Part shown: positions 2,809 through 25,669 of the stretch, piece after piece | How positions within the stretch are numbered: the stretch's first letter is position 1 | How the letters are laid out: every line of letters starts with the position of its first letter | Source of the DNA: Candidatus Saccharimonadota bacterium | GTDB taxonomy: Bacteria; Patescibacteriota; Gracilibacteria; UBA4473 | Assembly (NCBI GenBank): GCA_965228485.1 | Contig: OZ245819.1 | Coordinates: forward strand, 450,001-482,000 | DNA: 32,000 bases | Direction of reading: 5' to 3' | Position numbers and translations under genes: made by a program | The notes under the pieces: generated by a model | The model's database searches: none | Told to the model about the DNA's origin: nothing | The model's input: the letters and a program-made list of their open reading frames with translations, nothing else

Positions 2809-3185
2809 GTTCCTCAAAAAAAATCCTCATTATCGAAGATAACGAAAGCTTAAAAGATTTGTACTTTATGGCCTTCTCATCTCGGGAATTTGATGTTGAG
2901 CAGGCTAAGGAGGGATTAGAAGGCATAACCAAAGCTGTTGAGTTTAAACCCGACATTGTTTTACTCGACCTTATGATGCCAAACATGAGTGGTTTTGAGG
3001 TCTTAGACGCCATCAATAAAAACTCATCTCTTGATACAACTGTTTTTATCGCCAGCAACCTGACGGACAAAAAAAATATTAGTGCAGCTCTGGACAATGG
3101 GGCCGTTTATTTTTTTAAAAAAGCAGAATACACTCCAGATCAAATTGTGGAAAAGATCTTAGATTACATAGCTATCGAACTTTAA
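2805..3185 (+). CDS. single-domain response regulator (REC only, CheY-like)
   Basis: 126 aa. KILIIEDNE acidic pocket, phospho-acceptor Asp in DIVLLDLMMPNMSG, no output domain. Translationally coupled to the kinase. Confidence 0.85.
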   Translation: MSSSKKILIIEDNESLKDLYFMAFSSREFDVEQAKEGLEGITKAVEFKPDIVLLDLMMPNMSGFEVLDAINKNSSLDTTVFIASNLTDKKNISAALDNGAVYFFKKAEYTPDQIVEKILDYIAIEL

Positions 3186-3186
3186 T

Positions 3187-3214
3187 TTGACATTAAGGTT
3201 TTTTGCATTAAATT
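3187..3214 (+). promoter_or_regulatory. candidate sigma70-type promoter for the his leader
   Basis: TTGACA (3187..3192), 16-nt spacer, TAAATT (3209..3214). It starts 2 nt after the REC stop codon and lies ~12 nt upstream of the leader ATG. Confidence 0.35.
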
Positions 3215-3225
3215 TTAATGCTGAA

Positions 3226-3294
3226 ATGTTTAAACAAACTGTCGTTAACGCACATCATCACAGCGAACATCATTTTGTCGCGGTTTTTGTGTAA
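3226..3294 (+). CDS. histidine-rich leader peptide (hisL-like), MFKQTVVNAHHHSEHHFVAVFV
   Basis: 22-codon ORF below the track threshold. It has 5 His codons within 7 codons (cat cat cac agc gaa cat cat, 3253..3273). It sits directly upstream of hisG and is followed by a terminator hairpin. Confidence 0.65.
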   Translation: MFKQTVVNAHHHSEHHFVAVFV

Positions 3295-3324
3295 ACTAAA
3301 TATTTCATCAACAGTCATTCACAC

Positions 3325-3349
3325 AGTCCGCGATGCGGGCTATTTTTTT
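3325..3349 (+). terminator. intrinsic terminator acting as the his attenuator
   Basis: Stem 3325..3331 (agtccgc) pairs with 3335..3341 (gcgggct): 7 bp including one G-U, loop gat. Then a T7 run at 3343..3349, ending 21 nt before the hisG ATG. The 5' arm (ccgcga, 3328..3333) is also complementary to tcgcgg (3278..3283) inside the leader ORF. Confidence 0.65.
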
Positions 3350-3370
3350 ATTTAATTTTTCATAATAACC

Positions 3371-4468
3371 ATGTCACCAGAAAAACTACGTTCCCCAGAA
3401 GAAGTCACACCAGAAATCACCGTATTACTTCCTAAAAAGGCATTTAAAGATGGGAGTCGAAACAGCCTGTCTCAACTAGTATCTGATGCTGGCTATAACG
3501 AAGCCGCTTCAGGAAAAATGGGAAGATTTGATGAAGTAACAAATCAAGCTGGGTTTTATGAAAATGAACAAGATGTCGATATACAAACAGGAGAAATTTG
3601 TTTTAGATTTGTTAAGGATATTGGACGACTTGCTACCCAAATGAGACTCATGCAACTATCAGGAAAACCAGCTATTACAATTACTGGAAGTGATACTCTT
3701 TTGGAAGCCTACTTAAGAGTTACTCAGCAAGTCCAAGGTATTGTCCTAGAAAAAGTTGCCAACCTAGACATTGGCATTTGCAGTCTTGAATGGCTCACTC
3801 CAGAAGAAAATCCTGCTAACTCAACTCAAGCTCTTTCTGGACGAGATCTTTTTAGCAAGTACCCAGAATTAATGAGATACTTACTAAATCAATCTAGTGT
3901 TGAATCTCGAACTTTTGAAAGTGAAGGAGCTGATACGAATATTAATGACTTTAGAAGCGAAGAACTCCTTGAAACTGGGGCTCTAGAAATTGTTGGTTCA
4001 GGACAAACAGCTCTAGACCTTAAATTAAATAGATTTATGCCAGATGATGAATTATCACCGTTAAAAAATGTTCCTTTTAGCAGAATTAGTACTGATATTT
4101 TCTTGGTAAATCCTCAAAATATATCTAATCAAACTAAAATGGCCGCAATGACCGTTTGTGATGCACTGGAATCGGCCAAACCGAATGGGGCTTTTACTAG
4201 TTTAAAAGTCAATGTTCCAAAAGATAAACTCAGAAAAATTGAAGCTTTAAAAATTGGACTTATTGGCCCATCCCTTCAAAAAGTCCTGGCTAATGACGGT
4301 AGTGACTGGGTTGATGTGTCAATGGTTGTACCTGATGAAAATGCCAACGGAATTGCTACTCAGTTAAAACTCATTCTTGGAAACACTGGAACAATCTCTA
4401 TCGGAGCTAGAGGGATTAAAGGCGGTGGGAATGCAGCCTCTTCTAAATCTATTCAGTATTTTTCTTAA
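3371..4468 (+). CDS. hisG: ATP phosphoribosyltransferase, divergent long form
   Basis: 365 aa. By-eye alignment to E. coli HisG as I recall it: [27 protein letters not shown] vs [36 protein letters not shown] vs IIGENVLEEEL; PRPP-loop-like [14 protein letters not shown] vs DLVSTGATLEANGL. The C-terminal ~90 aa resemble the regulatory domain. Context supports it: His leader upstream, hisIE downstream. Confidence 0.6.
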   Translation: [365 protein letters not shown]

Positions 4469-4552: not shown

Positions 4553-5245
4553 ATGATGAATACTAAAGAAAAATCAGGATCAACTCCTGGGTTAGATTTT
4601 GAAAAATACCCAGACAAACTTATCCCCACGGTCGTTCAAGAAAACCAAACTGGAAGAATTCTTATGGTTGGTTTTGCTGACCAGGCTGCCGTGGATAAAA
4701 CCCTTGAATCTGGATTGGCTACGTTTTGGTCTCGAAGCCAGAAAAAAGCTTGGACCAAAGGCTTAACCTCAGGTGATACCCTTAAAGTTTCTGAGATAAG
4801 AACTGACTGTGATAACGACACGCTTATTTATCTCGTGGATATGGAAGGCAAAGGAGCCTGTCACATTGATGGATGGGTTACCTGCTTTCGCCGAAGAGTT
4901 AGTTCTACAGGTCAGATAGAGGAAGTTGAGGATATTCCGACCTGGAGTCGTTTCGACTCCGAAGAACAAGCGATTATTGAAGCTCGTTCAGAAGCTGATC
5001 CCAAACAATCTTTTACCGCTAAAATGGCACAAAGTAGTCTTGAAAAAATTGCAGGGAAGATTGCCGAAGAAACGGCTGAAGTATTGAAAGCCGTCCAAAT
5101 GGGCGAAAGGCGAGAAAGAATTATTTCCGAATTGGCAGACTGTGACTATGTTTCTCGAATTTTACTCGCAAAAATTAACCAAATGATAGAAGAACCCATC
5201 TCTATCATAGATATTGAAGAGGCTGTTATTGCCCGAAGAAAATAA
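4553..5245 (+). CDS. hisIE: bifunctional phosphoribosyl-AMP cyclohydrolase / phosphoribosyl-ATP pyrophosphatase
   Basis: The N-terminal half has the HisI signature: LIPTVVQE...WSRSQKKAWTKGLTSGDTLKV..IRTDCDNDTLIYLVDMEGKGACHIDGWVTCFRR (Cys/His metal site). The C-terminal half is MazG/HisE-like: IAGKIAEETAEVLKAV ... ELADCDYVSRILLA. Confidence 0.85.
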   Translation: MMNTKEKSGSTPGLDFEKYPDKLIPTVVQENQTGRILMVGFADQAAVDKTLESGLATFWSRSQKKAWTKGLTSGDTLKVSEIRTDCDNDTLIYLVDMEGKGACHIDGWVTCFRRRVSSTGQIEEVEDIPTWSRFDSEEQAIIEARSEADPKQSFTAKMAQSSLEKIAGKIAEETAEVLKAVQMGERRERIISELADCDYVSRILLAKINQMIEEPISIIDIEEAVIARRK

Positions 5246-5246
5246 C

Positions 5247-5278
5247 AAAAAGAGGCGCCAGGTGGCGCCTCTTTTTTT
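5247..5278. terminator. bidirectional intrinsic terminator between convergent hisIE and atpA
   Basis: Perfect 9-bp GC-rich stem agaggcgcc (5251..5259) / ggcgcctct (5264..5272), 4-nt loop. Flanked by an A-run on the left and a T-run (to 5278) on the right. Confidence 0.85.
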
Positions 5279-5298: not shown

Positions 5299-7056
5299 TT
5301 ATAGAGCTCCAACTTCTTTGATAATATTTGATCGAATTTTTTCGTATCCAGCTTCATCATCAGCTTTTAGTTCTTTACATCGAGCAATCTCTTGAATCAC
5401 TGGCAGTTCTTCTACTTTAGAGAAATCGAATTCCTCACGATCAACAAGCTTCATTCCTTCGTGGTAAAGAGCCACGATAGTTTTTAGCATTTCATATTGT
5501 TTCTTTGGAATCGTGTAAGCGTCCTCTGGATCAAAAGAATCTTGGTATAGGAAATCTTCTCGAATAGATTTAGACACAAGAAGTACTAGTTTTTCTCGAA
5601 CAGAAAGTGCATCTGGTCCAACCAATCGTACAATTTCTTGAAGTTTAGATTCTTCTTGTAGAAGTGTCAGCCCTAGCTCTCGAATATCCCAGTAATCTTC
5701 TGCAACATTTTCTTTGTTGAATTTCTCAAGATTTGGTGTGTATAGAGAGTAAGACTTCAACCAGTTAATCGCTGGGAAGTGACGTTGGTAAGAAAGCTTA
5801 GAATCAAGTCCCCAGTATACTTTTGTCACTCGAAGTGTATTTTGAGATACTGGCTCAGAAAGATCCCCTCCTGGAGGAGAAACCGCTCCGATTACCGTTA
5901 GAGATCCTGTTCGTCCTTCTGTCCCTAGACATTCAACCGCTCCAGCTCGTTCGTAGAATTCTGAAGTTCGTGAACCAAGGTAAGCTGGATAACCTTCTTC
6001 CCCTGGCATTTCTTCTAGACGTCCTGACATTTCCCGCATAGCTTCTGCCCATCGAGAAGTAGAATCGGCCATTAATGCTACGTTGTATCCCATATCTCGG
6101 TAGTACTCAGCAATCGTAATTCCTGTATAAACCGAAGCTTCACGAGCCGCTACTGGCATGTTTGAAGTATTGGCGATCATTGATGTTCGTTTCATCAATG
6201 GCTCACCACTATTTGGATCAATAAGATGTGGAAATTCATTTAGTACTTCCGTCATCTCATTCCCTCGTTCTCCACAACCGATATAAATAATTACTTGTGC
6301 ATCACAGTATTTGGCAACCGTTTGTTGAGTCACTGTTTTTCCAGAACCAAATGGTCCAGGGATACATCCTGCTCCTCCTTTCGCTAAAGGGAAGAACATA
6401 TCTGTTGATCTACATCCTGTTCGAAGTGGTTCATTTGGTACAATTTTTCCATTAACTGGACGAGCCACTCGGATTGGCCAGAAGTGTCGAAGTTGAACTT
6501 TCACTTCTTTACCATCAGCATCGAGTATCGCAATATCATCCGTTACTTTAAAATGTCCTGATTCAATAGATTTTACTGTCGCTTCTTTCACGCTGGGTGG
6601 AACCATCACTTTATGGAGAATCAGTGTTGTTTCTTGTACGGTTCCTAGTGTGTCCCCTCCTTTAACTGTATCTCCAGTAGATACGGTTGGAACAAAGTCC
6701 CATTTTTTAGTTTGATCTAGTCCTGGAGCATCAATCCCACGAGCGATAAAATGCCCTGATTGTTCCTCAATTGATTCCAATGGTCGTTGAATCCCATCAT
6801 AGATAGTTTCAAGAAGACCAGGACCAAGCTCTACTGATAGAGTTTGTCCTGTAGTTTTTACTGGTTCTCCTGGACCAATACCAGCCGTTTCTTCATAAAC
6901 CTGAATGTAGGCCTGGTCATCATTAAGTCGAATTACTTCTCCAATAAGTCCCTCTTTACCAACACGAACTACTTCGTACATCTTGGCATGAGACATGTTT
7001 TCAGCAACCACAAGTGGTCCTGATACTTTAATGATTACGGGTTGTTTTTCGCTCAT
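5299..7056 (-). CDS. atpA: V/A-type ATP synthase catalytic subunit A
   Basis: 585 aa. Walker A GPFGSGKTV; typical A-subunit N-terminus (VSGPLVVAENM..MYEVVRVG), non-homologous insert and C-terminal helical domain. Confidence 0.95.
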   Translation of the reverse strand: MSEKQPVIIKVSGPLVVAENMSHAKMYEVVRVGKEGLIGEVIRLNDDQAYIQVYEETAGIGPGEPVKTTGQTLSVELGPGLLETIYDGIQRPLESIEEQSGHFIARGIDAPGLDQTKKWDFVPTVSTGDTVKGGDTLGTVQETTLILHKVMVPPSVKEATVKSIESGHFKVTDDIAILDADGKEVKVQLRHFWPIRVARPVNGKIVPNEPLRTGCRSTDMFFPLAKGGAGCIPGPFGSGKTVTQQTVAKYCDAQVIIYIGCGERGNEMTEVLNEFPHLIDPNSGEPLMKRTSMIANTSNMPVAAREASVYTGITIAEYYRDMGYNVALMADSTSRWAEAMREMSGRLEEMPGEEGYPAYLGSRTSEFYERAGAVECLGTEGRTGSLTVIGAVSPPGGDLSEPVSQNTLRVTKVYWGLDSKLSYQRHFPAINWLKSYSLYTPNLEKFNKENVAEDYWDIRELGLTLLQEESKLQEIVRLVGPDALSVREKLVLLVSKSIREDFLYQDSFDPEDAYTIPKKQYEMLKTIVALYHEGMKLVDREEFDFSKVEELPVIQEIARCKELKADDEAGYEKIRSNIIKEVGAL

Positions 7057-7181: not shown

Positions 7182-7210
7182 TTGACTTTTTACAAAAAAA
7201 ATTATAATAT
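7182..7210 (+). promoter_or_regulatory. candidate promoter of the giant-gene pair
   Basis: TTGACT (7182..7187), 17 nt, TAATAT (7205..7210); alternatively TATAAT (7203..7208) with a 15-nt spacer. This implies a near-leaderless mRNA if the ATG at 7219 is used. Confidence 0.4.
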
Positions 7211-7218
7211 GATCTGAT

Positions 7219-10200
7219 ATGAAAATTTGGTTGGCCAACCATAATACAGAAAAACATTTTCCGAACACTCATAAAGTGTTTCGGAACGTTCATCAAATGA
7301 GTGACGATCCTGTTGATCAGCAGGTTAGTCGCTTGGCTGAAGATGTAGAAGCTCGTGTTCCTATCGAAACGGAAAAGTCTTATACTGAAACCTTCGCAAC
7401 AGTTGTAGCCCTATCGGTAGAAGAAACCATGCGTAGACAGGTGCAAGCTCCAGGCTCAACCGATCTAGAAGCTACTTATCGTACAGATTCACTAACAGAC
7501 TTTGGTGGTTTAGATCGAAAATTCTTTAGTAGCAAATGGTGGCTGACGAGTCTCTTTAACTCAAGAGCCCCAATGATGGAACTTTCTGAATTAAGAGATC
7601 CTCAAGGGAACCTTATCCCTGCTGAACTTTTGAAAGCTTCACCATACGCTCGATCTCAAACAGATGCTGCACTACTAGATGAAAGTTATAGTGGAACTTT
7701 ATCAGCTCTTAGAGCCAATGATGTCAAAAGAGACAACGTAACTTTAGCGAGCTTGGACTTTGTAGACGCTCTATTTCATGGAATTGAAGTTCCCGCTAGT
7801 AGTAGCGAACTTCTCAGACAATTAGGAGAAATCCAAGGATTGGGAAATGAGATTGTCACCGATATTCAACAGTTTGAGGCGCAACTTGCAAAACTTAGCA
7901 GCCGAGAACTCTGGAGAGAAATCGTGAGTTTCTTGCTTATCGCTCAAGAACCACGAGCAAAACTCATTAAATGGATTATCGAGCGACAACATGATCAAGG
8001 ATGGGCAGAAACTCAAGATATATTTACTTCGGCAAAACTAGAAAAAGGTCGTCAAATCCGAGCCTGGAATAATAATATTCGTCAATTCATTGCTCGAATT
8101 GACAGAACTGGGGATGATGCGGCTAAAGAAGATTTCTGGGCGCTCATCAGTTACGCCTCTCAAAACCCTACTGGTTTTGTAGCGAATCCAAACCTTGTCT
8201 TTGGAAATGTAAATTGGCAGCAGTTATCAGGATGTCCGAGTGCTATCGATTTTCTAGATACTATTAGACATAGTTCTATAGAAGGTTTGAAATTTATTCC
8301 AAACCGTTCTGGAAGAGATGGTATTACCGAATTTGAACCAGATGCTCCAAGAGCACGATATAGCTTGGTAGAGATTGCAGCTCATATGCAAGAAATGTCT
8401 CGTTTTGACGTGGCACTACAAAAATTGTTTGAACAAACCGATACAAGAATCACCCAATTCCAACAACTTTTCCGAAATACTGATTACTTTGATCTCTATA
8501 CGGAGCTAAACAATGAAATTGAAATGTCGGAAGAAGGCTCTATCGAGCAAATGCCAGACCTAAGGCAGCTTGTTCAAGATATTTCTACTTCTCTGAATGA
8601 CTGGCAGATTGGAATCAATGTAGAGAATACAATCTTCCAAGGAGTTGATCCTCGTCAATCTCCAGAAGAAGCTTTTTCTTTAATTGTGGATTATCTTAGC
8701 AGAAACCCAAACATTAGAGCTCTTCTAGATAATGATATTAAAAGACGAATCCTACGATATATTCACCTCATTGATGAAAAAGTAGAGGCAGATGCCCCAT
8801 CTGGAGCCGAAAACGAAGAAAACACCTTAGAAATAAGACACCGAATTCTTCGAATGGCTAAAATTACGCTCGAAAGAGCTCGAAGTTTAATTCAGCAAAT
8901 CCGAAGTGGAGAAATAAATAGAAAACTAAAGTCAAATGATGGTCAAGAATTCCAAAGAATAATGACCCAAATTGGGCAACTCATTGCCAGTTTTGATGAA
9001 CTTACCATTCACTTGGACAGAACCAACGACTCTGGGCATAAACTAAGAGATCGACTTCCAAAAGATGAAGCTGGAATTATTGAAAATGTAGAAACCTTAA
9101 AAGGATTTCGAGATGCTTTGTTTAGTTGGATAGGCACTATTCCAGGGGAACGAAATACGTATCTCACTACTTACCTAAACAACTTAGCCGATGAAGATGT
9201 GATTCAAGGCTATGAAAGAGCCGAACGAGAACTAAGAGATGCGATTATTGGCAATCTTACTAAAATAGATCAGATTAAAAGTGATTTAGAAACATTGAAG
9301 CAACTAGCACAACAGCAGGGAGCACAAAACATCCCAGTACAAGAAATTGACACTTTACTAGCCCAACTCGCAGTAGTTTCTGGAGCCGCTAATACTGGAG
9401 CTGTCCCAGGAGGAGGAATCTCATTGTCAGCTGAAGCTGAAAGAATTGAAGAAAGTGCACAGAAACTTATCGAAACCTACCAAGAGAATATTGTCAGATG
9501 GCGAAATGCTAAACATGGGGCTGCAGGGTTTGCTTTTACTATGCCAAAAATTGCCGAATTTGAATACGAAAGAGTAGATGACTATATTCATTTCTTAAAC
9601 GAAAGGAGAAGAAATCTCGAAGCGAGAAAACCAGCACTGTCCCCAAACCGAAGACCCAGAAGACAAACGCCTCAATCTATTGCTCAAAAGTTCAATGACA
9701 ACTTTTATCGAGAGTTTGCTAAAAGATCTCAAGATAATGCCCGAGATAAAATTTTCATGCCAAATTTTGAACCCATAAACAGACGATTATGGGAGTATCT
9801 AGAATCAATGATCCCAGGATCAAAAATTGGAAAATTGACGCTTACAAATGCAACCCATCAAAGCAAACTAAACTATCCAGGACATATACGAGACCGTGAA
9901 TATGTAAGAGACCTAACCATTATTGGAAATCGAACCATTGAAACCGAATCAGGCCCCCAAGAAGCGGTTATTCTAGAAGCTTTTGATCAAATATTATACG
10001 TCACACGTCCAACAGCAGGGGCTCAACAACCCAATATTTACAAATACGAAAAACACCCAAGCGAACATGGCGCCACCGCGAGTAACACCAACTTCAACCA
10101 AACTATGCTCGACTATCGTTTGGCGGGTTATATGCTTAGTGCTTATCCAGAAAATTTAGATGCTCCCAGCACTCTAAATAATCCTCAAAATAGACCCTAA
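7219..10200 (+). CDS. large orphan protein (993 aa), mostly helical/coiled-coil with a beta-rich C-terminal module
   Basis: Uninterrupted 2.98-kb ORF with protein-like composition. No signal peptide, TM helix or P-loop. Alternative start at M27 (nt 7297, MSDDP...). It shares N- and C-terminal motifs with the next gene (see findings). Confidence 0.8.
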   Translation: MKIWLANHNTEKHFPNTHKVFRNVHQMSDDPVDQQVSRLAEDVEARVPIETEKSYTETFATVVALSVEETMRRQVQAPGSTDLEATYRTDSLTDFGGLDRKFFSSKWWLTSLFNSRAPMMELSELRDPQGNLIPAELLKASPYARSQTDAALLDESYSGTLSALRANDVKRDNVTLASLDFVDALFHGIEVPASSSELLRQLGEIQGLGNEIVTDIQQFEAQLAKLSSRELWREIVSFLLIAQEPRAKLIKWIIERQHDQGWAETQDIFTSAKLEKGRQIRAWNNNIRQFIARIDRTGDDAAKEDFWALISYASQNPTGFVANPNLVFGNVNWQQLSGCPSAIDFLDTIRHSSIEGLKFIPNRSGRDGITEFEPDAPRARYSLVEIAAHMQEMSRFDVALQKLFEQTDTRITQFQQLFRNTDYFDLYTELNNEIEMSEEGSIEQMPDLRQLVQDISTSLNDWQIGINVENTIFQGVDPRQSPEEAFSLIVDYLSRNPNIRALLDNDIKRRILRYIHLIDEKVEADAPSGAENEENTLEIRHRILRMAKITLERARSLIQQIRSGEINRKLKSNDGQEFQRIMTQIGQLIASFDELTIHLDRTNDSGHKLRDRLPKDEAGIIENVETLKGFRDALFSWIGTIPGERNTYLTTYLNNLADEDVIQGYERAERELRDAIIGNLTKIDQIKSDLETLKQLAQQQGAQNIPVQEIDTLLAQLAVVSGAANTGAVPGGGISLSAEAERIEESAQKLIETYQENIVRWRNAKHGAAGFAFTMPKIAEFEYERVDDYIHFLNERRRNLEARKPALSPNRRPRRQTPQSIAQKFNDNFYREFAKRSQDNARDKIFMPNFEPINRRLWEYLESMIPGSKIGKLTLTNATHQSKLNYPGHIRDREYVRDLTIIGNRTIETESGPQEAVILEAFDQILYVTRPTAGAQQPNIYKYEKHPSEHGATASNTNFNQTMLDYRLAGYMLSAYPENLDAPSTLNNPQNRP

Positions 10201-10244
10201 AATACTAGTAAAAAAACTAATTTTATGGTAAAATATCAGGATTT

Positions 10245-13200
10245 ATGAAAAATTTCTGGTATTTGGAGTCTGAAAAACAAAGAACTGATGTCAATCGGTT
10301 TGTTTTTATGACCGATAGTCCAAGAAATGTAAACCGTCGAACCGATGAGCTTATTGGCGATGATATGGCGGAAAAAGTTGAAGCTAGAATGCTTGCTGGA
10401 GAGGCCTTAAGTGAATTAGATGATCACATTTCCAAACAGCTCACCGTAAAAACACACTATGGTTCTCCTCTTAGGCTTAGAAATGATCGTGGTGATACCA
10501 TCAGAGGATTAAGACAAGGAGAGGTTGTTACTTTTACGGGAGAAACAAAAATTACAAAAGATGCTAATGGGCAGGTAAGAGATACAGACGGTGACGGAAG
10601 TCTTAACAATCGTCATCTCTGGTTTAAAGTTAGAACAAGTTCAGGAGAAACTGGATGGGCGTCTGCTGAATATCTACAAGGCTCACTGAGTGCTCCCGTT
10701 ACTACGACTGAAGAACCTCTCGGGCCAGATAACAGTGTTATCCTAGCACCAGAAGAGCCTGAAGCTACTGAGCCACCCGCTCCAACAGAAGCTCCCGAAG
10801 AACCTTTACCAGACACCATAACCTTTACAAGTCTTCCTGGAGCAGCTGATAGAGCCTTAAGACGAGATATTGAAAGAAGAAGAACTACCGAAAGAACTTA
10901 TGAACGAGCACTTGATAGAGAACCTATTCCAACAAACGGAGAAACGGTTTCTCGAGCTGAGATGATTGCCAGTAAGGATTTTCAACAACATATTGATACT
11001 ATTTCACAACAAACTGGACTTCCACCGGAAAGAGTCCAGTCTATTATTAGTGACTTAGGCGTTCATCATCTGAGTTCTCCTGAGCAAATTACACAAGCGC
11101 TAGACCGCGCTGGGAGACTTCATGGTGAAGACGCATCGAAAGTACTCGATTCTCTAGCAAGAATTCCTGAAGCCGCTCAATTTTTGGTGGCTTTCAAACA
11201 TCCAAATGTGGTGAGATTTTTAAAGGGATCGGCGGTCTTTGGAGGGGTAGCACTACATACCACCTTCTGGAGCCGAATGGCCTCTGCCCCAGATTTGCGT
11301 TGGGATGGAGCCACACCAGTGACGGGGAATTCTGTCATTGATACGGGAAAATACTTTATCCCAATTGTCGGTAATGGTTTTGATTTTACCGATGCCTGGA
11401 CTGAAGCAAAACGAGGAAATATTGGATGGGCGGCTTTTAATGTCGCTACTGGAACTGTTGGTCTTGTTTTAGATGTCTTCAGTATTGTTACCGCGCCAAC
11501 AGTCGCTGGACCTGTGGCAGGACAATCTGCAAAAGCTGGATTCAAAGCCAGTATGAGAACCTTCAAATTATGGGTTAAAAGTGGTGGAGCTAAAGCCATG
11601 GCAACTCAAGCTGGAGAATTTATCGCTCGAAACACCGCTGGTGTCAGAGAAAGTCTTGGAAATTTTGCCTCTTGGGCTGGAAGACAAGCTTCGGGTATTG
11701 GAAATGCCATTTCAAACTCCCCTGTTGGTCGAGTAGCCTCAAGTGTTGGAGAAGGACTGGCTAGAGGTAGAGCTAATATTGGAAAAATTTGGGGGGTTCG
11801 ACACGCCGACAATTACATCCGTGGGATGGAAGAAGCTGCTACAGCAAATTTAGCCACCGCAAAAGCTGCCGATACTTCATTCCTTGGAAAGGCTGGAAAC
11901 TACCTTGCTTATGGAGCACGAGAAACGGTTTCAAGTCTTTATAATATTTTGACCTTTAAAATTCTTAATAGTCCTAAAGCCGCTAATGCTGCTTATGACG
12001 CTGCTCGAGTAGATCCTGAAAAGACAGAGACCGAGACAGATTCTGGAAAGATTGAAAGAGTCGCGGACGGAGTTGATATCCAAGGCAAAACGGTCCGTGC
12101 TGGTGATAAGCTTATCATTAAAGATTTAGAAAATGGACCCGCTAGAGCTAATGGACAAGAAATCATCATTGATAAAATTGAAGATGGACAAGTCTTTAGT
12201 CACTCTCCTGGATTTGATAAACCCAATCCCCCGTTTAAAGTGGACGATTTAAATGATCCAGCAAAATTTGAAGTTACTTTCCCTCGAATTGAAAAACTAA
12301 AGGAAAGTCTACAAAGAGCCAAAGATGAAGGGAGCGAAAAACTATCTGCCCTAGAGGACTCACTAAAAACTGAAAGAGACAAAACTCATCATGATTATTT
12401 TAGTGGTCGAAATATTGATCGACTAAAAACTGAAATTGAAAAAAACCAAGAAATTTTTGATGCAAAAGTTAAAGAATTTGAAACAAAAATTACTGAACTC
12501 GAAGCGAAACATAATGAATCAGAATCTGGACGACTCGCTAGTAAACCAGAGGTAAGGCAACTCATTCAAGATATAGAAAGAGAACGAGAAGCTTTTGTAA
12601 AAAGACAAAATGATAAATACGACGAAGTTCAACAAGAGATTGAAGCAGGAATAAGATCTCGAGAAGCAGAAGAGGCAGAGCTATCTAAATTTAATAAAGA
12701 AATTGAAGCTCTAAAGAATGACCAGCCTTCTGTTTTTAGAAAAATTATGGGAAAACCTAAAACTCCAGAAGCTAGACAAGCAGAAATTGACCGTATATAT
12801 AAAGAATCAATTGAACCAATGTCAGCTCGACTCGGAGAAGAAGTACCGGAAAAACCAGTCGTTTATGAAGACCCACTTGATGTGACTGATCTTGATACAA
12901 AACCTGAAAAATTAGATATAACCGACAAGGAGTTTAAACTAAAATGGGGCGATAGTGAATGGGTAGAAGTTAAAAGAAATAAAGGACGTAAAAATAACCC
13001 TGACACCATTACCGTCACAGAAATTAAGGAAGGGCCTCAGGCAGATAAAACTATTCTCACCATTGAATATGGTAAAAGTGGAGAAGCTGAATTTGGTGGT
13101 CGAAAAGTAAAATTTGCTGTTGATGAGGATGGAACTATCTGGGTTAATTCACTTGATAAACCAAGAACAAAAGTAGACGACGATCCTGATCCTCAACCTA

Positions 13201-14132
13201 GAGACAAAACCGACGAAGCAGAACCTGATAAAACTGAAGCTGATGACACTACTCCAGATAAACAAGATAGCGATCCAGAAGATACCGATACTCGTGAAAG
13301 AACTGATGATGAACCTGAGCCACGTGATCGAGAAAGACGGGATGAACCAGATCAGCCTGAACCAAAAAACTCTACGCCTCTGCGAAACTTTGAAATGAAC
13401 TATGAACATCTCAGTCGTAATGTTTTTGAACTTAAAAATACTCGACACGTTACGCTGAATGATAATTTTGGTAATACCCTTTTCCGAATAAGAGTTGGTG
13501 AAAAAAATGGTCTACTAATTCGAAGTCAAGAAGTTGGCTACAGCAAAAGCGAACAAATGCAGCAACCGACTGGAGAAAATATTACTCGTGAGTTTATTCG
13601 AGAGGACGGAACGAGTATTAAGATTGAATACCGAACGGATGGTAAATTCTTCATCGAAAAAATAGGTGAGAACAATACAGGGAAAGATAATACTACTCCT
13701 GATCGTCGAGACACTCCTGACCGTAAGGATGAAAAGAGAGATGACAAAGGAGAAGAGAGAGATAGAACTTTAAATCCTGATGATCCATTAAGTACTAAAT
13801 GGCCTTCTGAGTTATTTGCCAACCGAGGAGATATTGGACACTTGAGAACGTCTAGAATGAAACCTAATGCGGTCTATGAAGTCCAAAGAAGCCGAGAGCA
13901 AGAATTCCAATTACAAACATCCGAGGATAAATCTGCACGAATTAAATTAAGAACAACAGAAACGGGTTTAGAAGTTGAATATCTAAGAGGTTACGATGGA
14001 CCTAAGGACATCACGGAAATACCACCAGGACCAGGACATACCTTCCGAGTGGATGACAATACCTCTATACACATAAAAGTAGAACCAAGTGAAACTGGTC
14101 CAAATGTAATTTTAGAAAGAATTGACAATTAA
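10245..14132 (+). CDS. giant orphan protein (1295 aa): SH3b-like domain, P/E linker, hydrophobic Gly/Ala-rich region, long coiled coil, three beta-rich modules separated by acidic linkers
   Basis: Uninterrupted 3.9-kb ORF starting 44 nt after the previous gene. SH3b-like LRLRNDRGDTIRGLRQGEVVTFTGE...LWFKVRTSSGETGWASAEYL (nt ~10440..10682). Alternative start at M22 (nt 10308, MTDSP...). Its TAA stop overlaps the atpF stop. Confidence 0.8.
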   Translation: MKNFWYLESEKQRTDVNRFVFMTDSPRNVNRRTDELIGDDMAEKVEARMLAGEALSELDDHISKQLTVKTHYGSPLRLRNDRGDTIRGLRQGEVVTFTGETKITKDANGQVRDTDGDGSLNNRHLWFKVRTSSGETGWASAEYLQGSLSAPVTTTEEPLGPDNSVILAPEEPEATEPPAPTEAPEEPLPDTITFTSLPGAADRALRRDIERRRTTERTYERALDREPIPTNGETVSRAEMIASKDFQQHIDTISQQTGLPPERVQSIISDLGVHHLSSPEQITQALDRAGRLHGEDASKVLDSLARIPEAAQFLVAFKHPNVVRFLKGSAVFGGVALHTTFWSRMASAPDLRWDGATPVTGNSVIDTGKYFIPIVGNGFDFTDAWTEAKRGNIGWAAFNVATGTVGLVLDVFSIVTAPTVAGPVAGQSAKAGFKASMRTFKLWVKSGGAKAMATQAGEFIARNTAGVRESLGNFASWAGRQASGIGNAISNSPVGRVASSVGEGLARGRANIGKIWGVRHADNYIRGMEEAATANLATAKAADTSFLGKAGNYLAYGARETVSSLYNILTFKILNSPKAANAAYDAARVDPEKTETETDSGKIERVADGVDIQGKTVRAGDKLIIKDLENGPARANGQEIIIDKIEDGQVFSHSPGFDKPNPPFKVDDLNDPAKFEVTFPRIEKLKESLQRAKDEGSEKLSALEDSLKTERDKTHHDYFSGRNIDRLKTEIEKNQEIFDAKVKEFETKITELEAKHNESESGRLASKPEVRQLIQDIEREREAFVKRQNDKYDEVQQEIEAGIRSREAEEAELSKFNKEIEALKNDQPSVFRKIMGKPKTPEARQAEIDRIYKESIEPMSARLGEEVPEKPVVYEDPLDVTDLDTKPEKLDITDKEFKLKWGDSEWVEVKRNKGRKNNPDTITVTEIKEGPQADKTILTIEYGKSGEAEFGGRKVKFAVDEDGTIWVNSLDKPRTKVDDDPDPQPRDKTDEAEPDKTEADDTTPDKQDSDPEDTDTRERTDDEPEPRDRERRDEPDQPEPKNSTPLRNFEMNYEHLSRNVFELKNTRHVTLNDNFGNTLFRIRVGEKNGLLIRSQEVGYSKSEQMQQPTGENITREFIREDGTSIKIEYRTDGKFFIEKIGENNTGKDNTTPDRRDTPDRKDEKRDDKGEERDRTLNPDDPLSTKWPSELFANRGDIGHLRTSRMKPNAVYEVQRSREQEFQLQTSEDKSARIKLRTTETGLEVEYLRGYDGPKDITEIPPGPGHTFRVDDNTSIHIKVEPSETGPNVILERIDN

Positions 14133-14482
14133 CCGAGGATATCACTTCCAACCGCTCGTTCTACAATCTTTCTCATTCGATTTGCGGCAAAGTTATCGTC
14201 TCCAGACTTTGAAGATGGTACCGGAATTACCGCTGGTAGTGGTTTTCGAGCAAATCTCTCAATCACATCTTCTGAAAAGTTTTTGTAGTAATCTTCTTCA
14301 ACAAAAAGTACCGCATATTCTGCTGTTTTTGCTTCGTCCCCTTTATTCGCCATAAAAAGTTCTTCCGCTTTTTCTTGCGCTTCATCTTGAGTGTACACTC
14401 CGTAAGTTTCACATCCAAGGGCTCGGTAGATTAGTACCGAACTTACATTCCCGACAACGGCTAATTTGTATTCCTCAGACAT
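14129..14482 (-). CDS. atpF: V/A-type ATP synthase subunit F
   Basis: 117 aa. KLAVVGNVSSVLIYRALG, AVLFVEE, PAVIPVPS, KIVERAVGSDIL match the NtpG/AtpF pattern. Confidence 0.85.
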   Translation of the reverse strand: MSEEYKLAVVGNVSSVLIYRALGCETYGVYTQDEAQEKAEELFMANKGDEAKTAEYAVLFVEEDYYKNFSEDVIERFARKPLPAVIPVPSSKSGDDNFAANRMRKIVERAVGSDILG

Positions 14483-14483
14483 G

Positions 14484-15491
14484 TTAGAGTCGTTCTAAAA
14501 GATCATAAATTTGCTCCGAAGTAAGACCATTAAACTTACCGTACATGATCAATTTCAAAACCTGAGCATTTCTCATTCTTCTTTCGAAGTAATTGATCAA
14601 TACCGCTAGTCCTGGTCCAGAACCAAGGGACTCCCATTTAAGGAAGTCATAGTAATATCTATCTAGTTCTCTTTCAATCGCATAAATAGAGCCGACTGGG
14701 TCATCTTTATCAATTTGTTCTGCGGCTTTGTTAAACTTCGTTCGAAGCATATATTTCGAAAGTTCATCAGCACTGTGAACTCTCTCTACCGCGTAGTAAG
14801 CTACATTCCCTCCTGTGATCCAAGTTTCTTTTGGCACTTCCGTTCCTCGAATCAAAACACATCGAGACAGATTTCGGAAATTCACTCTATCAATCCAGTG
14901 TCGCACAAGTTTTTGTAGGAAATGGTCTTTTACTCGCTCATTTCTTAAGTCCATGAAAAATTCTCCCATAGCTTTATCGAGAGCAAACTCAACCGCTAAG
15001 AAATTATCGGCTTCTTTGTAAATATTTTCAGCCTGCTCTACCACAGCATAAATTGTAAAAGGGATGCGTCTATGAGTATGACCACCAAAGACAACCTCTT
15101 CCAATTCTTTTTGGCTCAACATTGCCAGATTAGAGTACCCTTCGTTTTCAGAAAAAGTTTCAATCCCCGTTTTGCCTTCAAGAATTTTAGCCTTTAGAGC
15201 TCGTTTGATGTTGTTTATATCAAACTGAAGCCAAAGGAATCTTAACCCTTCATCATTCTCAGATCCTTTCATCAAAAGATCTTTTGTTTCAAAGAGACCT
15301 TGTCTAATAATTGTATAAAAATCTTTTACCGTTGTTTCTTCATCAATAAACTCTGCGTAATTTGATTCTACCAAAACTCGAAAAGCTTCTTCTGGAGTTT
15401 CGGCTCCAACCATTCGATCAATCTGAGCTTGGTTTAACAACCGAGACTCTTGTGCTCGAACCTGACCGGATACAAACGAAAAATAAGGCAT
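14484..15491 (-). CDS. atpC: V/A-type ATP synthase subunit C (eukaryotic d-like)
   Basis: 335 aa helical protein. Position between E and F in the operon, with size and pattern typical of AtpC/NtpC. Confidence 0.8.
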   Translation of the reverse strand: MPYFSFVSGQVRAQESRLLNQAQIDRMVGAETPEEAFRVLVESNYAEFIDEETTVKDFYTIIRQGLFETKDLLMKGSENDEGLRFLWLQFDINNIKRALKAKILEGKTGIETFSENEGYSNLAMLSQKELEEVVFGGHTHRRIPFTIYAVVEQAENIYKEADNFLAVEFALDKAMGEFFMDLRNERVKDHFLQKLVRHWIDRVNFRNLSRCVLIRGTEVPKETWITGGNVAYYAVERVHSADELSKYMLRTKFNKAAEQIDKDDPVGSIYAIERELDRYYYDFLKWESLGSGPGLAVLINYFERRMRNAQVLKLIMYGKFNGLTSEQIYDLLERL

Positions 15492-15494
15492 ATT

Positions 15495-16052
15495 TTAAAC
15501 AAGCTTCAATTGATCTGTGAAGTACATTTCAAGTGGTTGTTTGTACTCAGAGAAGACCAAATTTTTAAATGAGTTATCAATCTCCATTCCATCAGCAACA
15601 CAGACAAAACCTCCTTTGATATCATTATCTGCTTTAACATCGAAATCCTTCCCTAATAAAGGTTTAAGAACTTCAACATCAGCTTTTGCTGCACGAACAC
15701 TTCCCTTTTCAACTCCCATTTGAGTAATTTGAGCTTTAAAGATAGTCGTCTTTGTCTCGTTATCAGCTATCACTAGAGCTTCAAAGAATTTTTCCATTGC
15801 TGCATCTAAAACTGCTCGACGAGCGCTCAATAGAGCTTGTCTATTTTCTCGCCGAGCCATAGTATCAATTTTAGTGTCCACAGCTTCTAGAGCTGCTTCC
15901 GTTTTAACCTCAAGCGCTGCTAATTCTTCTTTTCTTGAAACTTTCGCTTTTTCAGAAACTTCTACTTTATCTTTCTCTAGTTGAACTTGAATTTCAGCAA
16001 TACGAGCTTCACTTTCTGCTTGAATTTTTTTGATGATATCTTGCAACGCCAT
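15495..16052 (-). CDS. atpE: V/A-type ATP synthase subunit E (peripheral stalk)
   Basis: 185 aa. N-terminal long charged helix (LQDIIKKIQAESEARIAEIQVQLEKDK) plus a globular C-terminus. Operon position fits. Confidence 0.8.
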   Translation of the reverse strand: MALQDIIKKIQAESEARIAEIQVQLEKDKVEVSEKAKVSRKEELAALEVKTEAALEAVDTKIDTMARRENRQALLSARRAVLDAAMEKFFEALVIADNETKTTIFKAQITQMGVEKGSVRAAKADVEVLKPLLGKDFDVKADNDIKGGFVCVADGMEIDNSFKNLVFSEYKQPLEMYFTDQLKLV

Positions 16053-16085
16053 GATTAATTTTTTCTAATAAATTTTAATTGGAAA

Positions 16086-16556
16086 TTAGATTTGCACTGC
16101 ATTAGCAATTAGAAGTGCAACCAGTAGACCGAAAATAGCGTAAGTTTCTACTACCACCGCTAGAACGATCGCTTTACCTGTAAGACTTTCATCTCGAGCC
16201 ATAGCTCCAATACCAGAAGCTACTACTTTCCCTTGAAACCATCCAGAGAAAAGACCAGCCAATCCCATAAGGATTCCTGCCCACATGAATTGACTTCCTG
16301 CTTCTACTGCTACTTCTGCTCCTCCTCCAAAGAATCCGATCTTAGAAAGAACAAAGATAGCGATAAGAAGTCCATATACTCCTTGAGATCCTGGAAGGGC
16401 CGATAGGATCAAAATTTTACCGAAAAGGTGTGGTTTTTCAGCAAGAACTCCTGCACCTTTAGCCCCAGCGGCTCCAATACCGATTGATGATCCTGCTCCT
16501 CCGAGAACAGCAGACATTGCAGCTCCGATAACTGCGAGAACGATTCCTGATTCCAT
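16086..16556 (-). CDS. atpK: V/A-type ATP synthase proteolipid subunit K (4-TM, duplicated c)
   Basis: 156 aa. Aligns by eye along its whole length with Enterococcus hirae NtpK as I recall it: ALPGSQGVYGLLIAI, GLFSGWFQGKVVASGI, VVVETYAIFGLLVALLI. Confidence 0.9.
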   Translation of the reverse strand: MESGIVLAVIGAAMSAVLGGAGSSIGIGAAGAKGAGVLAEKPHLFGKILILSALPGSQGVYGLLIAIFVLSKIGFFGGGAEVAVEAGSQFMWAGILMGLAGLFSGWFQGKVVASGIGAMARDESLTGKAIVLAVVVETYAIFGLLVALLIANAVQI

Positions 16557-16641
16557 GATTTTTTGTGATTAAAAATTGAAAATTTGTCGGGCGAATTTTT
16601 TGTAATTTAAGTAAATTGTCAACCCATTTACCTAACTTTTT

Positions 16642-18663
16642 TTATTTCTCTATATTTAAGTATTTGTGTTTACGAATAAAGGGATCAAACTTTGTTCCCC
16701 CACCTTCGTAAAACTTGCCAAAGAACTCAATAAATTGGAGACGTCCAGAGTGGATAAAAGCCCCCAATAGAGAAAGTCCAAAGTTTAAGGTATGACCAAA
16801 AAGGATAACAATCGCCCCAATAAGAATTCCAAGTGTCCAATGAGGCATCATTCCGCCGAGAATCCCAGCGGTCATATTCATGGCAAAACCAACTACTCCT
16901 GTAGCCAATCCTAATGCCATAATACGGGAATAACTTAATAAATCTGAAAGATACGAAGTTGAATTATAAAGACTGATAAGTCCAAATAGTGGCTTCAAGA
17001 ACCATTTAACATCAGCAATAATTGCCTGTGAAATAAACAACACTAGTGCTGATAGTTTTGCTAGGTTTGTCATCATGGCCTTATCTAGTCCAGTGGCCGC
17101 TGCAACTGGCTCTACTGAAGAAAGCCCAAAAAGCACAAGTGATCCAATAAAGAAGAACCAAGCTCCTGAATTAAGCACCGCACCATTATAATCTTTATTT
17201 GATAGTCGTTGGAAGAAATCAATAACTAACCCCGTTAGTAGTTGAAGTGCCCCCAGACCAAGAGCTACGCTCAAGAATAAGATTGGCCCAGACCCTTCCA
17301 TAGGATTTAGAAGCTGCCCGTAAAATTGTCCCGTATTCGGATTCACCAACCAAGAAAGCTGATCGGTTGTAAGTCCAAAGTGTCCCCCAAGAATTACTCC
17401 TCCAATAAAAGCTGAAATTCCACAGAACAGTAGTAGTAAAAGTGAATCTTTGGCAGCCTTCCCAAATTTCCCAAAGATCAAAAACCACGTGGCTACTAAA
17501 ATAAGAATTGAACCATATCCAGTATCAGAAAGACAGAGTCCAAAGAATACAAAAAAGAATGGCATAATAAAAGGCGTTGGATCAAACTCCGTCACCTTCG
17601 GAAGTCCATACATCTCAACTACCGGTTCAAAAGAACGAATCCCCCACTTATTACTCAATAATACTGGTGGTTCTTCATCTTTCTCTGGCTTGATTTCTTC
17701 AAGGCTCACTTCTCCAACAAAAATATTCTTAATCCATTTTTTCAGATCAGGCAAAGCACTAGAAAGTGCCCATGCCTCAAAAGCAAAAACTTGATCTGAT
17801 AGGTAAATCTTTTGCTGAAGATCGTTTTTGGTCTTTCTCCATGAATTGAAATCAAAAAGAATTTTTAAATCTTCGATATTAACGGTTAACTTTTTAACTC
17901 GAGCTTCCAGTTCTTCTCTTTCCTCCTGATAATCAACAAGCTGCTTATCCAATTCTCGAACGATAGTTTTAATATTTTTTCCTTCAAAATCCCCAAACTC
18001 TTGACCAAGATTAATCGGTTCAAAAGCGTATTTAGATACAATTCCTTGAGTCTGAGTTTTAAGCTCATTCCAAACCGTCAATCGCACAAAAACAATCTTC
18101 TTGAGACGTCCAAGAATTTTAAGATCTACTAAGTTGGATTCTGAAGACACTTCTTGTTGGAAAGCTTCAAACTGCTCTCCTGGGATCTTCCCAATCCATG
18201 TAGTTGTTTTTTCTGTAGCATAATCCGCATTAATGGTTGAATCGAATTGACCAAGCGTATCAAGTAATCGTTTTTTTACTGGAATACTATCAATTTCGTT
18301 TTTTACCCGAACCAACCGATCTTCGATCTTTTCACACTCTTCAATAATTTTTTCAGATTTTGGAGCAAAGTTTTTCAATCGATCTTTTGCTGCATCCTCA
18401 GAGAGTACTAGTTTTCCTCCAGAGAGAATAGACTCAATCTTAGAACCTGGAGTTGCGAATGGAGATAGAAATTCTAGAGCAAACTCAATCCGAGCTAAAT
18501 CAAAAACTCCGAAGTGATCATCATACTCTTTTTTTGACTGTTCAACGAACTCTGAATTCTCCACAACCTGAAGTGTTCCACTTCTGTGAAGTTCTTGCAT
18601 CAAAATTTTATAATGGGATTTAAATCCCGTAATCCGAACTTTTTTCAGCTGTGCCTTGGCCAT
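16642..18663 (-). CDS. atpI: V/A-type ATP synthase subunit I (stator a-subunit)
   Basis: 673 aa. Soluble coiled N-terminal half plus a polytopic C-terminal half ending ...SYSRIMALGLATGVV...HSGRLQFIEFFGKFYEGGG. The ATG directly abuts the TAG of the upstream gene. Confidence 0.9.
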   Translation of the reverse strand: MAKAQLKKVRITGFKSHYKILMQELHRSGTLQVVENSEFVEQSKKEYDDHFGVFDLARIEFALEFLSPFATPGSKIESILSGGKLVLSEDAAKDRLKNFAPKSEKIIEECEKIEDRLVRVKNEIDSIPVKKRLLDTLGQFDSTINADYATEKTTTWIGKIPGEQFEAFQQEVSSESNLVDLKILGRLKKIVFVRLTVWNELKTQTQGIVSKYAFEPINLGQEFGDFEGKNIKTIVRELDKQLVDYQEEREELEARVKKLTVNIEDLKILFDFNSWRKTKNDLQQKIYLSDQVFAFEAWALSSALPDLKKWIKNIFVGEVSLEEIKPEKDEEPPVLLSNKWGIRSFEPVVEMYGLPKVTEFDPTPFIMPFFFVFFGLCLSDTGYGSILILVATWFLIFGKFGKAAKDSLLLLLFCGISAFIGGVILGGHFGLTTDQLSWLVNPNTGQFYGQLLNPMEGSGPILFLSVALGLGALQLLTGLVIDFFQRLSNKDYNGAVLNSGAWFFFIGSLVLFGLSSVEPVAAATGLDKAMMTNLAKLSALVLFISQAIIADVKWFLKPLFGLISLYNSTSYLSDLLSYSRIMALGLATGVVGFAMNMTAGILGGMMPHWTLGILIGAIVILFGHTLNFGLSLLGAFIHSGRLQFIEFFGKFYEGGGTKFDPFIRKHKYLNIEK

Positions 18664-19002
18664 CTATGAAACAATTTCATTAACAAAATAAGTCTGAACC
18701 TGAGGTAAAATCTTATCGATTTTTGGCTCAATATTCTTCTTCAACTGAGAAGCTTCTTTCTCACCCTCTTTAATAAGTCCCTCATAACGTCCTCTCGCTA
18801 CTTCTTGACGGTCTTTTAACTTTCCTTTGGCTTCTACTCGTGCAGTCTCTAGTGCCGCTTGAGTTTTTTCTCCTTCTTTTTTGCTATGAGTTTGTAAGTC
18901 AGAAGCTGCTTTTCTTCGTGCCTTTTCCACTTTAGCCACCGCCTCTTCTTCAGCCACTTGAATTTGGGCTAGAAAATCATTTGAATTGGTCGATTTCGAC
19001 AT
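18664..19002 (-). CDS. atpH: small coiled-coil ATPase stalk subunit (G/H-like)
   Basis: The track starts this ORF at 19023, but that codon is TTG and lies inside the promoter motif. The first ATG is at 19002 (MSKSTNS...), giving 112 aa. Charged helical sequence (AQIQVAEEEAVAKVEKARRKA...). First gene of the operon. Confidence 0.6.
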   Translation of the reverse strand: MSKSTNSNDFLAQIQVAEEEAVAKVEKARRKAASDLQTHSKKEGEKTQAALETARVEAKGKLKDRQEVARGRYEGLIKEGEKEASQLKKNIEPKIDKILPQVQTYFVNEIVS

Positions 19003-19021
19003 ACTTTTATGCTTAAAAAAC

Positions 19022-19080
19022 AAATCACGCGGATTCTGGTCAAGTTCTATAAAATGTCAATTCAGAAAATAATTTTTTTT
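19022..19080 (-). promoter_or_regulatory. atp operon promoter module
   Basis: Read on the minus strand: A8 (19080..19073), N12, TTGACATTTT (-35 at 19060..19055), 16-nt spacer, CAGAAT (-10 at 19038..19033), then CCGCGTGATTT. 19 nt separate the motif from the ATG at 19002. Confidence 0.6.
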
Positions 19081-25536: not shown

Positions 25537-25669
25537 AAAAATAGACGATTAGTCCGTCTTATTAAGGGAATAACTAACTTTTACACGCAAAAAGTCACGA
25601 ACACTAAAGTTAAAAAGTTCTTAGTATTGACTAAATTTTAGCCATTTATGAGAAAATGCAAGTTTTTTC

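Follow-up and report, generated by a model that had tools for sequence, protein, structure and literature searches.

How a Candidate Phyla Radiation (CPR) bacterium might adjust a gene of histidine biosynthesis to the supply of histidine is the question raised by a short intergenic region on contig OZ245819.1. The DNA analyzed here (the window) is a 32-kb stretch of this contig, and the region in question separates a response-regulator gene from a gene for a HisG-like ATP phosphoribosyltransferase, which is followed by hisIE. With a probability of about 0.8, the region holds a ribosome-mediated leader-peptide attenuator that tunes the hisG-like/hisIE operon to charged tRNA-His, a reading whose support is computational throughout. 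The element is very probably a full four-segment attenuator of a known kind in a phylum where such regulation has not been described so far. An earlier, model-made reading of the letters (the sequence-only reading) had proposed a ribosome-sensed His attenuator of the hisL type, and this proposal is supported both by folds of ribosome-masked RNA and by four conserved leaders.

The region contains a short open reading frame (ORF), the putative leader, in which five of seven successive codons specify His (Table 1). In a six-frame scan, such a density was unique among short ORFs (6-60 codons) on both strands of the 32-kb window, and His makes up 1.6% of the codons across the window's ORFs. Enrichment in codons for the end product within a short ORF ahead of a biosynthetic operon is a mark of the trpL/hisL class, and ORF 3226-3294 carries it. 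The gap, the 22-codon ORF, the His run, the hairpin and the U7 tract were all confirmed at their reported positions on reading 2900-3600, as was the complementarity of UCGCGG (3278-3283) to CCGCGA (3328-3333).

The leader ORF is followed by an intrinsic terminator with a 7-bp stem (five G-C pairs), located by a pattern scan, whose U7 tract sits 21 nt ahead of the HisG-like ATG. Since 21 nt leave no room for a promoter between the U-run and the start codon, the HisG-like gene must be reached by read-through. Strong terminator-like sites (at least five G-C pairs and a long T run) number three in the window, and the other two lie at 5247-5276 (bidirectional) and 19128-19107. The 3' end of the leader ORF can pair with the terminator region to form an antiterminator composed of GUCGCGG:CCGCGAU and UUGUGU:ACACAG (3277-3292 with 3321-3334). 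This 13-bp structure is more stable than the terminator (-13.9 versus -10.1 kcal/mol), and when the upstream segment was dinucleotide-shuffled 1000 times and folded with the terminator 5' arm, 2 shuffles matched its energy. Because the terminator 5' arm lies wholly inside segment 3, the terminator and the antiterminator are mutually exclusive. The locus therefore has, on sequence, the other marks of the trpL/hisL class: a terminator before the first gene, an antiterminator that excludes it and a 1:2 hairpin. The sequence-only reading had the elements right but understated the structure, as the antiterminator is longer than it described and the 1:2 hairpin and a promoter-like site were missed.

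Table 1. Features of the leader region and of the operon downstream, in window coordinates
Feature	Position	Strand	Description	Basis
Intergenic gap	between 3185 and 3371		185 nt, from the end of the response-regulator ORF (3185) to the HisG-like ATG (3371)	
Promoter-like site	3187..3214	+	TTGACA (3187-3192), 16-nt spacer, TAAATT (3209-3214)	10/12 matches, best in region
Leader peptide ORF	3226..3294	+	22 codons, MFKQTVVNAHHHSEHHFVAVFV, stop UAA (3292-3294)	
Segment 1	3250..3269	+	pairs with segment 2; 1:2 anti-antiterminator, 13 bp in three blocks, -11.0 kcal/mol	minimum-free-energy folds
Regulatory His codons	3253-3261; 3268-3273	+	CAU CAU CAC (codons 10-12); CAU CAU (codons 15-16)	
Segment 2	3276..3292	+	3' end of leader ORF; GUCGCGG, U5 tract, UUGUGU; partner is segment 1 or 3	
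Segment 3	3321..3334	+	ACACAG-U-CCGCGAU, antiterminator 3' strand; overlaps terminator 5' arm and loop	
Intrinsic terminator	3325..3349	+	AGUCCGC/GCGGGCU (3325-3331 with 3335-3341), loop GAU, A, U7 (3343-3349), -10.1 kcal/mol	
HisG-like gene	3371..4468	+	divergent long-form HisG-like ATP phosphoribosyltransferase, 365 aa; first regulated gene	
hisIE	4553..5245	+	phosphoribosyl (PR)-AMP cyclohydrolase/PR-ATP pyrophosphatase, 230 aa; second regulated gene	
Bidirectional terminator	5247..5276	.	13 bp; ends the two-gene operon and the convergent V-type ATPase A gene	pattern scan

The effect of a translating ribosome was modeled as a 28-nt mask on the RNA; at the stop codon the footprint spans 3277-3304 and covers segment 2. 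When nascent RNA ending at 3334 was folded with the A site at His10, 11 or 12, the antiterminator formed with a probability of 1.0, which supports the earlier proposal that a ribosome stalled on the first His triplet would permit antitermination. In the full transcript, the probability of the terminator was 0.01-0.02 when the ribosome was placed on His10-12 and both its footprint and the RNA 5' of the footprint were masked. The same probability rose to 1.0 with the ribosome at the stop codon or with no ribosome at all, in keeping with the second half of that proposal, that a ribosome at the stop codon lets the terminator form.

Four distinct leader sequences were compared, namely those of the window, the L001 group (L001-L004 and L013-L015), L017 and L019, with the L001-group and L017 leaders drawn from contigs of relatives and from a metagenome scan. 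A 90%-cluster search yielded five close relatives of the HisG-like protein (72-76% identical), and a two-sequence alignment scan of metagenomes gave three contigs from one population only. Two further contigs (L016 and L018) stop within the U-run and inform only the spacing from the terminator tail to the ATG. L019 is more distant: its HisG-like protein (P0012) is only 29-32% identical (~30% to that of the window), and relatives of its neighboring TsaD gene are labelled Candidatus or Patescibacteria. All four leaders have 22 codons, a terminator with U7 and 14-21 nt from there to the start codon. The predicted peptides are MNFQSTCLQHHHRESHSRRFLT in the L001 group, MNFKISALAHHHRELHSRRFLM in L017 and MKTIRTGSALHHHLHFHCAGRF in L019, where the leader lies at L019:2864-2986 together with its terminator and antiterminator; CAUCAUCAC is shared unchanged by the window, L001 and L017. 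The His triplet is at codon 10 in these three and at codon 11 in L019. In L001 and L017 it reads CAU CAU CAC (codons 10-12), and a 7-bp terminator with U7 stands 20-21 nt before the start codon. Loss of the His run or of the alternative pairing in relatives, which the sequence-only reading had named as evidence that would speak against it, was looked for, and both are kept in the four distinct leaders.

The paired structures are retained even where the letters differ. The antiterminator and terminator have energies of -15.4 and -12.6 kcal/mol in L001, -15.5 and -11.6 in L017, and -21.8 and -13.5 in L019, while the 1:2 hairpin has -9.4 in L001 and -11.3 in L017 and is weak (-5.3) in L019. The antiterminator energy was matched by 3 of 1000 shuffles for L017 and 1 of 1000 for L019. 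In L019, whose terminator is CCGGC-gcaaca-GCCGG plus U7, placing the ribosome on the His triplet gives a terminator probability of 0.001, and placing it on the stop codon gives 0.999. A MAFFT alignment of the window, L001, L004 and L017 (without L019) misaligns the terminators, and the pairs were therefore tabulated by hand. Every listed terminator or antiterminator helix pair is a standard pair in all four leaders despite their differing sequences. In the antiterminator core, GUCGCGG:CCGCGAU of the window corresponds to UUGUGCCGGUC:GACCGGCGCAA of L019, and the outer helix occurs as UUGUGU:ACACAG, GCUU:AAGC or, in L019, GUUUUU:AAAAAC. One change is fully compensatory, with G-C at terminator pair 2 of the window but C-G at this pair of L001 and L017.

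The gene upstream of the leader unit encodes a response regulator in the window, a type IV secretion system pilin in L001 and L017, and a TrpR-like protein in L019. This variation between lineages indicates that the unit goes with the HisG-like gene rather than with its upstream neighbor. In L019 the leader ATG overlaps the TGA stop of the TrpR-family gene (ATGA), and translation of the leader may be coupled to that of this gene. Leader codons 1-9 of the window share 41% DNA identity with those of L001 or L017, and UCGCGG is shifted by 4 nt into a different reading frame between the window and L001. The poor conservation of the peptide outside the His cluster and the frame shift of UCGCGG suggest that selection acts on the His codons and the RNA pairing and apparently not on the peptide.

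From the promoter-like site at the start of the gap, transcription is predicted to begin near 3221, leaving a 5' untranslated region (UTR) of ~5 nt before the leader ATG. The 39 nt from the -35 hexamer to the leader ATG are free of gaps in the window, L001, L004 and L017, and TTGAC(A/G) stands exactly 39 nt upstream of the ATG in L001 and L017. Promoter-like matches as such are no more frequent than expected from shuffled sequence (35 and 31 versus shuffle means of 38.6 and 37.2). A Shine-Dalgarno-like motif precedes none of 25 window ORFs. Several TTGACA-type matches are found 8-11 nt from start codons elsewhere in the window (e.g., 7182-7210 before the ATG at 7219, and 19060-19033 before the start at 19023), a spacing that implies leaderless or nearly leaderless mRNAs. 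A 45-codon ORF in another frame (MLKCLNKLSL..., 3218-3355), which overlaps both leader and terminator and whose ATG precedes the predicted transcription start, is probably not expressed.

From these elements we infer a start site, leader translation, stalling, pausing, termination and read-through, in the following order. Transcription would start ~5 nt before the leader ATG, and the leader would be translated from a nearly leaderless mRNA without a Shine-Dalgarno sequence. When His-tRNA is scarce, the ribosome would stall at codons 10-12 and hide segment 1, leaving segment 2 free to pair with segment 3 as the latter emerges. The resulting 13-bp antiterminator would sequester the 5' arm of the terminator, and with the terminator blocked RNA polymerase would read into the hisG-like gene 21 nt downstream. 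When His-tRNA is plentiful, the ribosome would proceed to the UAA and hide segment 2, such that the 3:4 terminator would form and the transcript would end at ~3349. If the leader is not translated, the 1:2 and 3:4 hairpins would both form and transcription would terminate as well. The 1:2 hairpin may also double as a pause hairpin. A U5 tract directly follows the segment 2 core in all four leaders (window 3284-3288, L001:1529-1533, L017:222-226 and L019:2926-2930), in the sequence contexts GGUUUUUG, GCGCUUUUUG and GUCGUUUUUG. Placed after the 1:2 hairpin, this tract could make RNA polymerase pause in a hairpin-dependent manner and keep transcription in step with the leader ribosome.

Several results weigh against the attenuator as described. 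When the footprint alone is masked, equilibrium in the full window transcript favors the terminator (P = 0.86-1.0), because the extreme 5' end pairs with the spacer beyond the stop codon in a competing A-U helix. The two states of L001 have almost equal energies when the 5' part is masked too (terminator probability ~0.86-0.90), and in L017 the antiterminator wins at equilibrium even without a ribosome. Taken with the L001 result, the footprint-only fold of the window means that the switch has to be kinetic, as in classical attenuators. A ribosome stalled on His15 or His16 would hide segment 2 and would not bring about antitermination. The shuffle control is weak for L001 (59 of 1000), and the covariation was counted by hand in only four independent sequences, a sample too small for statistics. 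Finally, the nearby genes (hisG and hisIE) cover only the first three steps of the pathway.

Coincidence would account for the locus if the hairpin were a constitutive or leaky terminator, or an insulator of the upstream two-component operon, and if the His-rich ORF had arisen by accident in an AT-rich spacer and were not translated. In the AT-rich DNA of the window, promoter-like and terminator-like matches are indeed common, the promoter-like hits do not exceed shuffle expectation, and translation of the leader ORF is a prediction from sequence. However, the ORF, terminator and alternative pairing precede the HisG-like gene behind three unrelated upstream genes in four divergent sequences, and in the window a promoter-like site separates the upstream gene from the leader ORF. 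With a 5-in-7 His short ORF occurring once in 32 kb and shuffle controls of 1 to 59 of 1000, coincidence has a very slim chance of being correct. The short ORF could instead specify a functional small His-rich peptide that binds metal, for example, with the hairpin merely setting the stoichiometry of peptide and HisG. The 22-residue length and the position of HHH are conserved, as this would predict, and His clusters generally bind metals. Yet almost nothing is shared outside the His cluster, as the low identity of codons 1-9 attests, and the conserved UCGCGG is read in different frames in the window and L001. A peptide function would leave unexplained why the strand pairing with the terminator arm is exactly the one that the C-terminal codons occupy, and we give this account no better odds than coincidence.

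Alternative hairpins alone do not identify the sensor, and a real switch could be set by a factor acting in trans: a His-binding RNA-binding protein of the HutP or TRAP type, uncharged tRNA-His (a T-box) or a small ligand. The ATGA overlap that joins the TrpR-family gene of L019 to the leader ORF is compatible with such a factor, but TrpR/HisR proteins bind DNA (PMC9413887) and no gene for an RNA-binding regulator is adjacent in the window. Neither a T-box nor a riboswitch was matched in the window at the gathering score or at relaxed E-values, and the leader is too short, and its upstream structure too poor, for a T-box. The invariant run of His codons ~16 nt before segment 2 has a spacing that fits a ribosome footprint, and control in trans is accordingly quite unlikely. 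The least probable account is that a second, internal promoter at the hairpin (TTCACA-17-TATTTT, 3318-3346) makes the hisG-like gene independent of read-through. This site is a 9/12 promoter-like match that overlaps the terminator, but such matches are no commoner than in shuffled sequence, and its -35-like hexamer is not conserved, being replaced by UUAAGC, UAUAAG or ACCAGA in L001, L017 or L019. Attenuation by a leader ribosome is thus the preferred explanation of the locus.

The first gene of the operon is not an ordinary hisG. The sequence-only reading placed hisG downstream of the leader, but the protein is, judged from its sequence, a very divergent putative long-form ATP phosphoribosyltransferase (ATP-PRT) of a rare family, and only hisIE follows it. 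It scores barely above threshold against the Pfam models HisG (28.7 bits, cut-off 25.5) and HisG_C (24.0, cut-off 23.5) and falls below the cut-offs of the NCBIfam models TIGR00070 (25.8, cut-off 75.75) and TIGR03455 (27.9, cut-off 40.05). A profile of 29 family members nevertheless matches solved long-form ATP-PRTs (E = 3e-16), and the motif E-I-V-G-S-G-x-T aligns with D-L-V-S-S-G-A-T, the phosphoribosyl pyrophosphate (PRPP) loop of 4yb5. A full HMMER search retrieved 31 relatives among 1.84 billion cluster representatives. Some family members are ~540 aa in length and are HisG-HisE fusions, the C-terminal extension of these long forms matching HisE. Genome-contig scans queried with the HisG-like protein and with HisIE returned no relatives, and an exact sequence look-up of the window's own protein gave no match. 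No his genes other than the HisG-like gene and hisIE are found in the 32-kb window.

Within the L001 group, L004:3398-5900 and L014:5410-7743 show 99-100% identity over a stretch that begins at the pilin gene, includes the leader and reaches ~L004:4600, within the HisG-like gene. Beyond this point identity is 57-81% in the rest of the HisG-like gene and 0-74% per 100-nt window across hisIE, which looks from the sequences like a recombination breakpoint inside the HisG-like gene. The hisIE of the L013-L015 variant is predicted as a gene of 107 aa for PR-AMP cyclohydrolase (PRA-CH) only. A branched-chain amino-acid leader was sought ahead of ilvB in L014 and none was found.

More distant members of the HisG-like family were found in six contexts (L005, L006-L008, L009-L012, L019, L020 and L021-L022), with the gene at ~3001 or 4001. 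No His leader was found in five of the six (scanned in L005, L006, L007, L009, L020 and L022), and the leader is thus not universal in the family. In all six, a gene of the TrpR/HisR family (PF01371) is immediately upstream of the HisG-like gene, suggesting that amino-acid-responsive control is a general trait of the family. The scanned window ORFs (at least 80 aa up to 12 kb and at least 90 aa beyond) include no PF01371 gene. Judged from these gene contents, the clade of the window appears to use a leader where its relatives use a repressor, while L019 has both. A RibD-like gene (cytidine-deaminase fold plus RibD_C) is directly downstream in three of the six contexts, and no hisA, hisF, hisH, hisB, hisC or hisD is near the HisG-like gene in any of them. 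The distant loci may represent a module of their own that differs from a standard his operon.

The leader resembles the enterobacterial hisL (RF00514) and trpL leaders in its short ORF rich in cognate codons, its 1:2, 2:3 and 3:4 pairings and its terminator directly ahead of the first biosynthetic gene. The regulatory codons also lie at a similar distance from the U-run (77-88 nt in the leaders described here). However, no sequence or structure homology with hisL or trpL is detectable. The hisL leader contains seven consecutive His codons, whereas that of the window has 3+2. Unlike hisL, the leader has no Shine-Dalgarno sequence and a predicted 5' UTR of ~5 nt, controls only the hisG-like gene and hisIE instead of a full his operon, and is found in a CPR bacterium. 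The sequence-only reading had suggested a search with Rfam models for His leaders and T-boxes, and this produced no family match: at the gathering score the window contains no leader, T-box or riboswitch, and covariance-model scores place the leader in neither His_leader (RF00514) nor T-box (RF00230). Under relaxed settings the best match in the window was Trp_leader (21.3 bits versus a threshold of 41), which was driven by the terminator, and the leader regions of L001, L017 and L019 gave nothing.

The first leader-peptide systems to be recognized were those of Proteobacteria and Actinobacteria, and His leaders were later described in bacilli, on hisS/hisZ paralogues (PMC2965389), as well as on the his operons of the Bacillus cereus group, Peptostreptococcaceae and Erysipelotrichales (PMC9413887). 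The Firmicutes leaders (PMC2965389; PMC9413887) are similar to those described here in that their hosts have low GC content, they carry 3-5 consecutive His codons and they form terminator and antiterminator hairpins. They occur in lineages without HisR or T-box control, and this replacement of one regulator by another can be likened to the present case. They differ in phylum and sequence, in that L019 has both a TrpR/HisR-family gene and a leader, and in that the gene regulated here is one of a rare and divergent HisG-like family. In Firmicutes, the histidine repressor HisR is a TrpR-family protein (PMC9413887); it binds DNA, whereas the leader is an RNA switch. Since His leaders are known in low-GC Firmicutes, low GC alone is no reason for surprise, and the claim that the element was unexpected in a low-GC lineage stands only in so far as no CPR report was found. 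A literature search on leader peptides, attenuation, histidine biosynthesis and hisG in CPR, Patescibacteria and Gracilibacteria found no such report, which is absence of evidence only. A further parallel is offered by the leaderless Cys-rich short ORFs of mycobacteria (bioRxiv 10.1101/834739), which are reported to be likewise rich in one amino acid, to lie on leaderless or nearly leaderless mRNA, to sense the amino acid concerned and to control a downstream operon; the leaderless start proposed here follows only from promoter spacing.

The host contig spans 1,295,315 bp, and the closest named relatives of its DnaN protein (72-74% identical) are labelled Candidatus Gracilibacteria. Many Gracilibacteria read UGA as Gly (genetic code 25). 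This code was rejected for the window, as 12 long ORFs contain no in-frame TGA in 7968 codons versus 160 and 415 in the other frames; thus, despite Gracilibacteria being the nearest named relatives, the window uses translation table 11. The stop codons of the 25 window ORFs are TAA in 20 (80%), TAG in three and TGA in two. Elsewhere in the window, the V-type ATPase genes are split, with I-K-E-C-F at 14129-19023 (-) and subunit A at 5299-7056 (-), and subunits B and D are absent from the window. The two parts are separated by two very large ORFs of 993 and 1295 aa at 7219-14132 (+), the former without a Pfam match and the latter with only a sub-threshold match to SH3_3. The neighborhood from hisIE to atpA is conserved in L004. 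A weak terminator-like hairpin (6 bp) with a T-run at 25543-25559 (-) separates dnaN from mfd and stops 7 nt short of the mfd ATG, a further instance of a terminator immediately ahead of a start codon.

A bolder reading, which we consider rather doubtful, is that the operon is not part of the normal pathway but a CPR-specific His-responsive module. Such a module would combine the rare HisG-like enzyme and HisE/HisI with, in most cases, a TrpR/HisR-type regulator and, in many, a RibD-like deaminase/reductase, and would carry out only the steps from PR-ATP to phosphoribosylformimino-5-aminoimidazole carboxamide ribotide (ProFAR), with the leader being ancestral and repeatedly exchanged with the repressor. 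If so, its intermediates could possibly be handed to the host, serve in the conversion of adenine to inosine monophosphate (IMP) or guanine, or lead to an undescribed product.

The attenuator itself has implications that do not depend on that reading. To our knowledge, gene regulation in CPR bacteria is almost unstudied, and if the leader functions as proposed, classical transcription-translation coupling and the sensing of tRNA charging would operate in these organisms. The four leader sequences would suffice as the starting set of a covariance model with which to find further elements of this kind in Patescibacteria. The leader would also be indirect evidence that a highly divergent and rare HisG-like gene belongs to histidine metabolism, and the exchange between leaders and TrpR/HisR-type genes would be a clear case of regulator replacement on one gene family. 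CPR bacteria are thought to be amino-acid auxotrophs. An attenuator of this kind would suggest that an organism with ~1.3 Mb of DNA keeps watch on its supply of histidine instead of merely importing all it needs.

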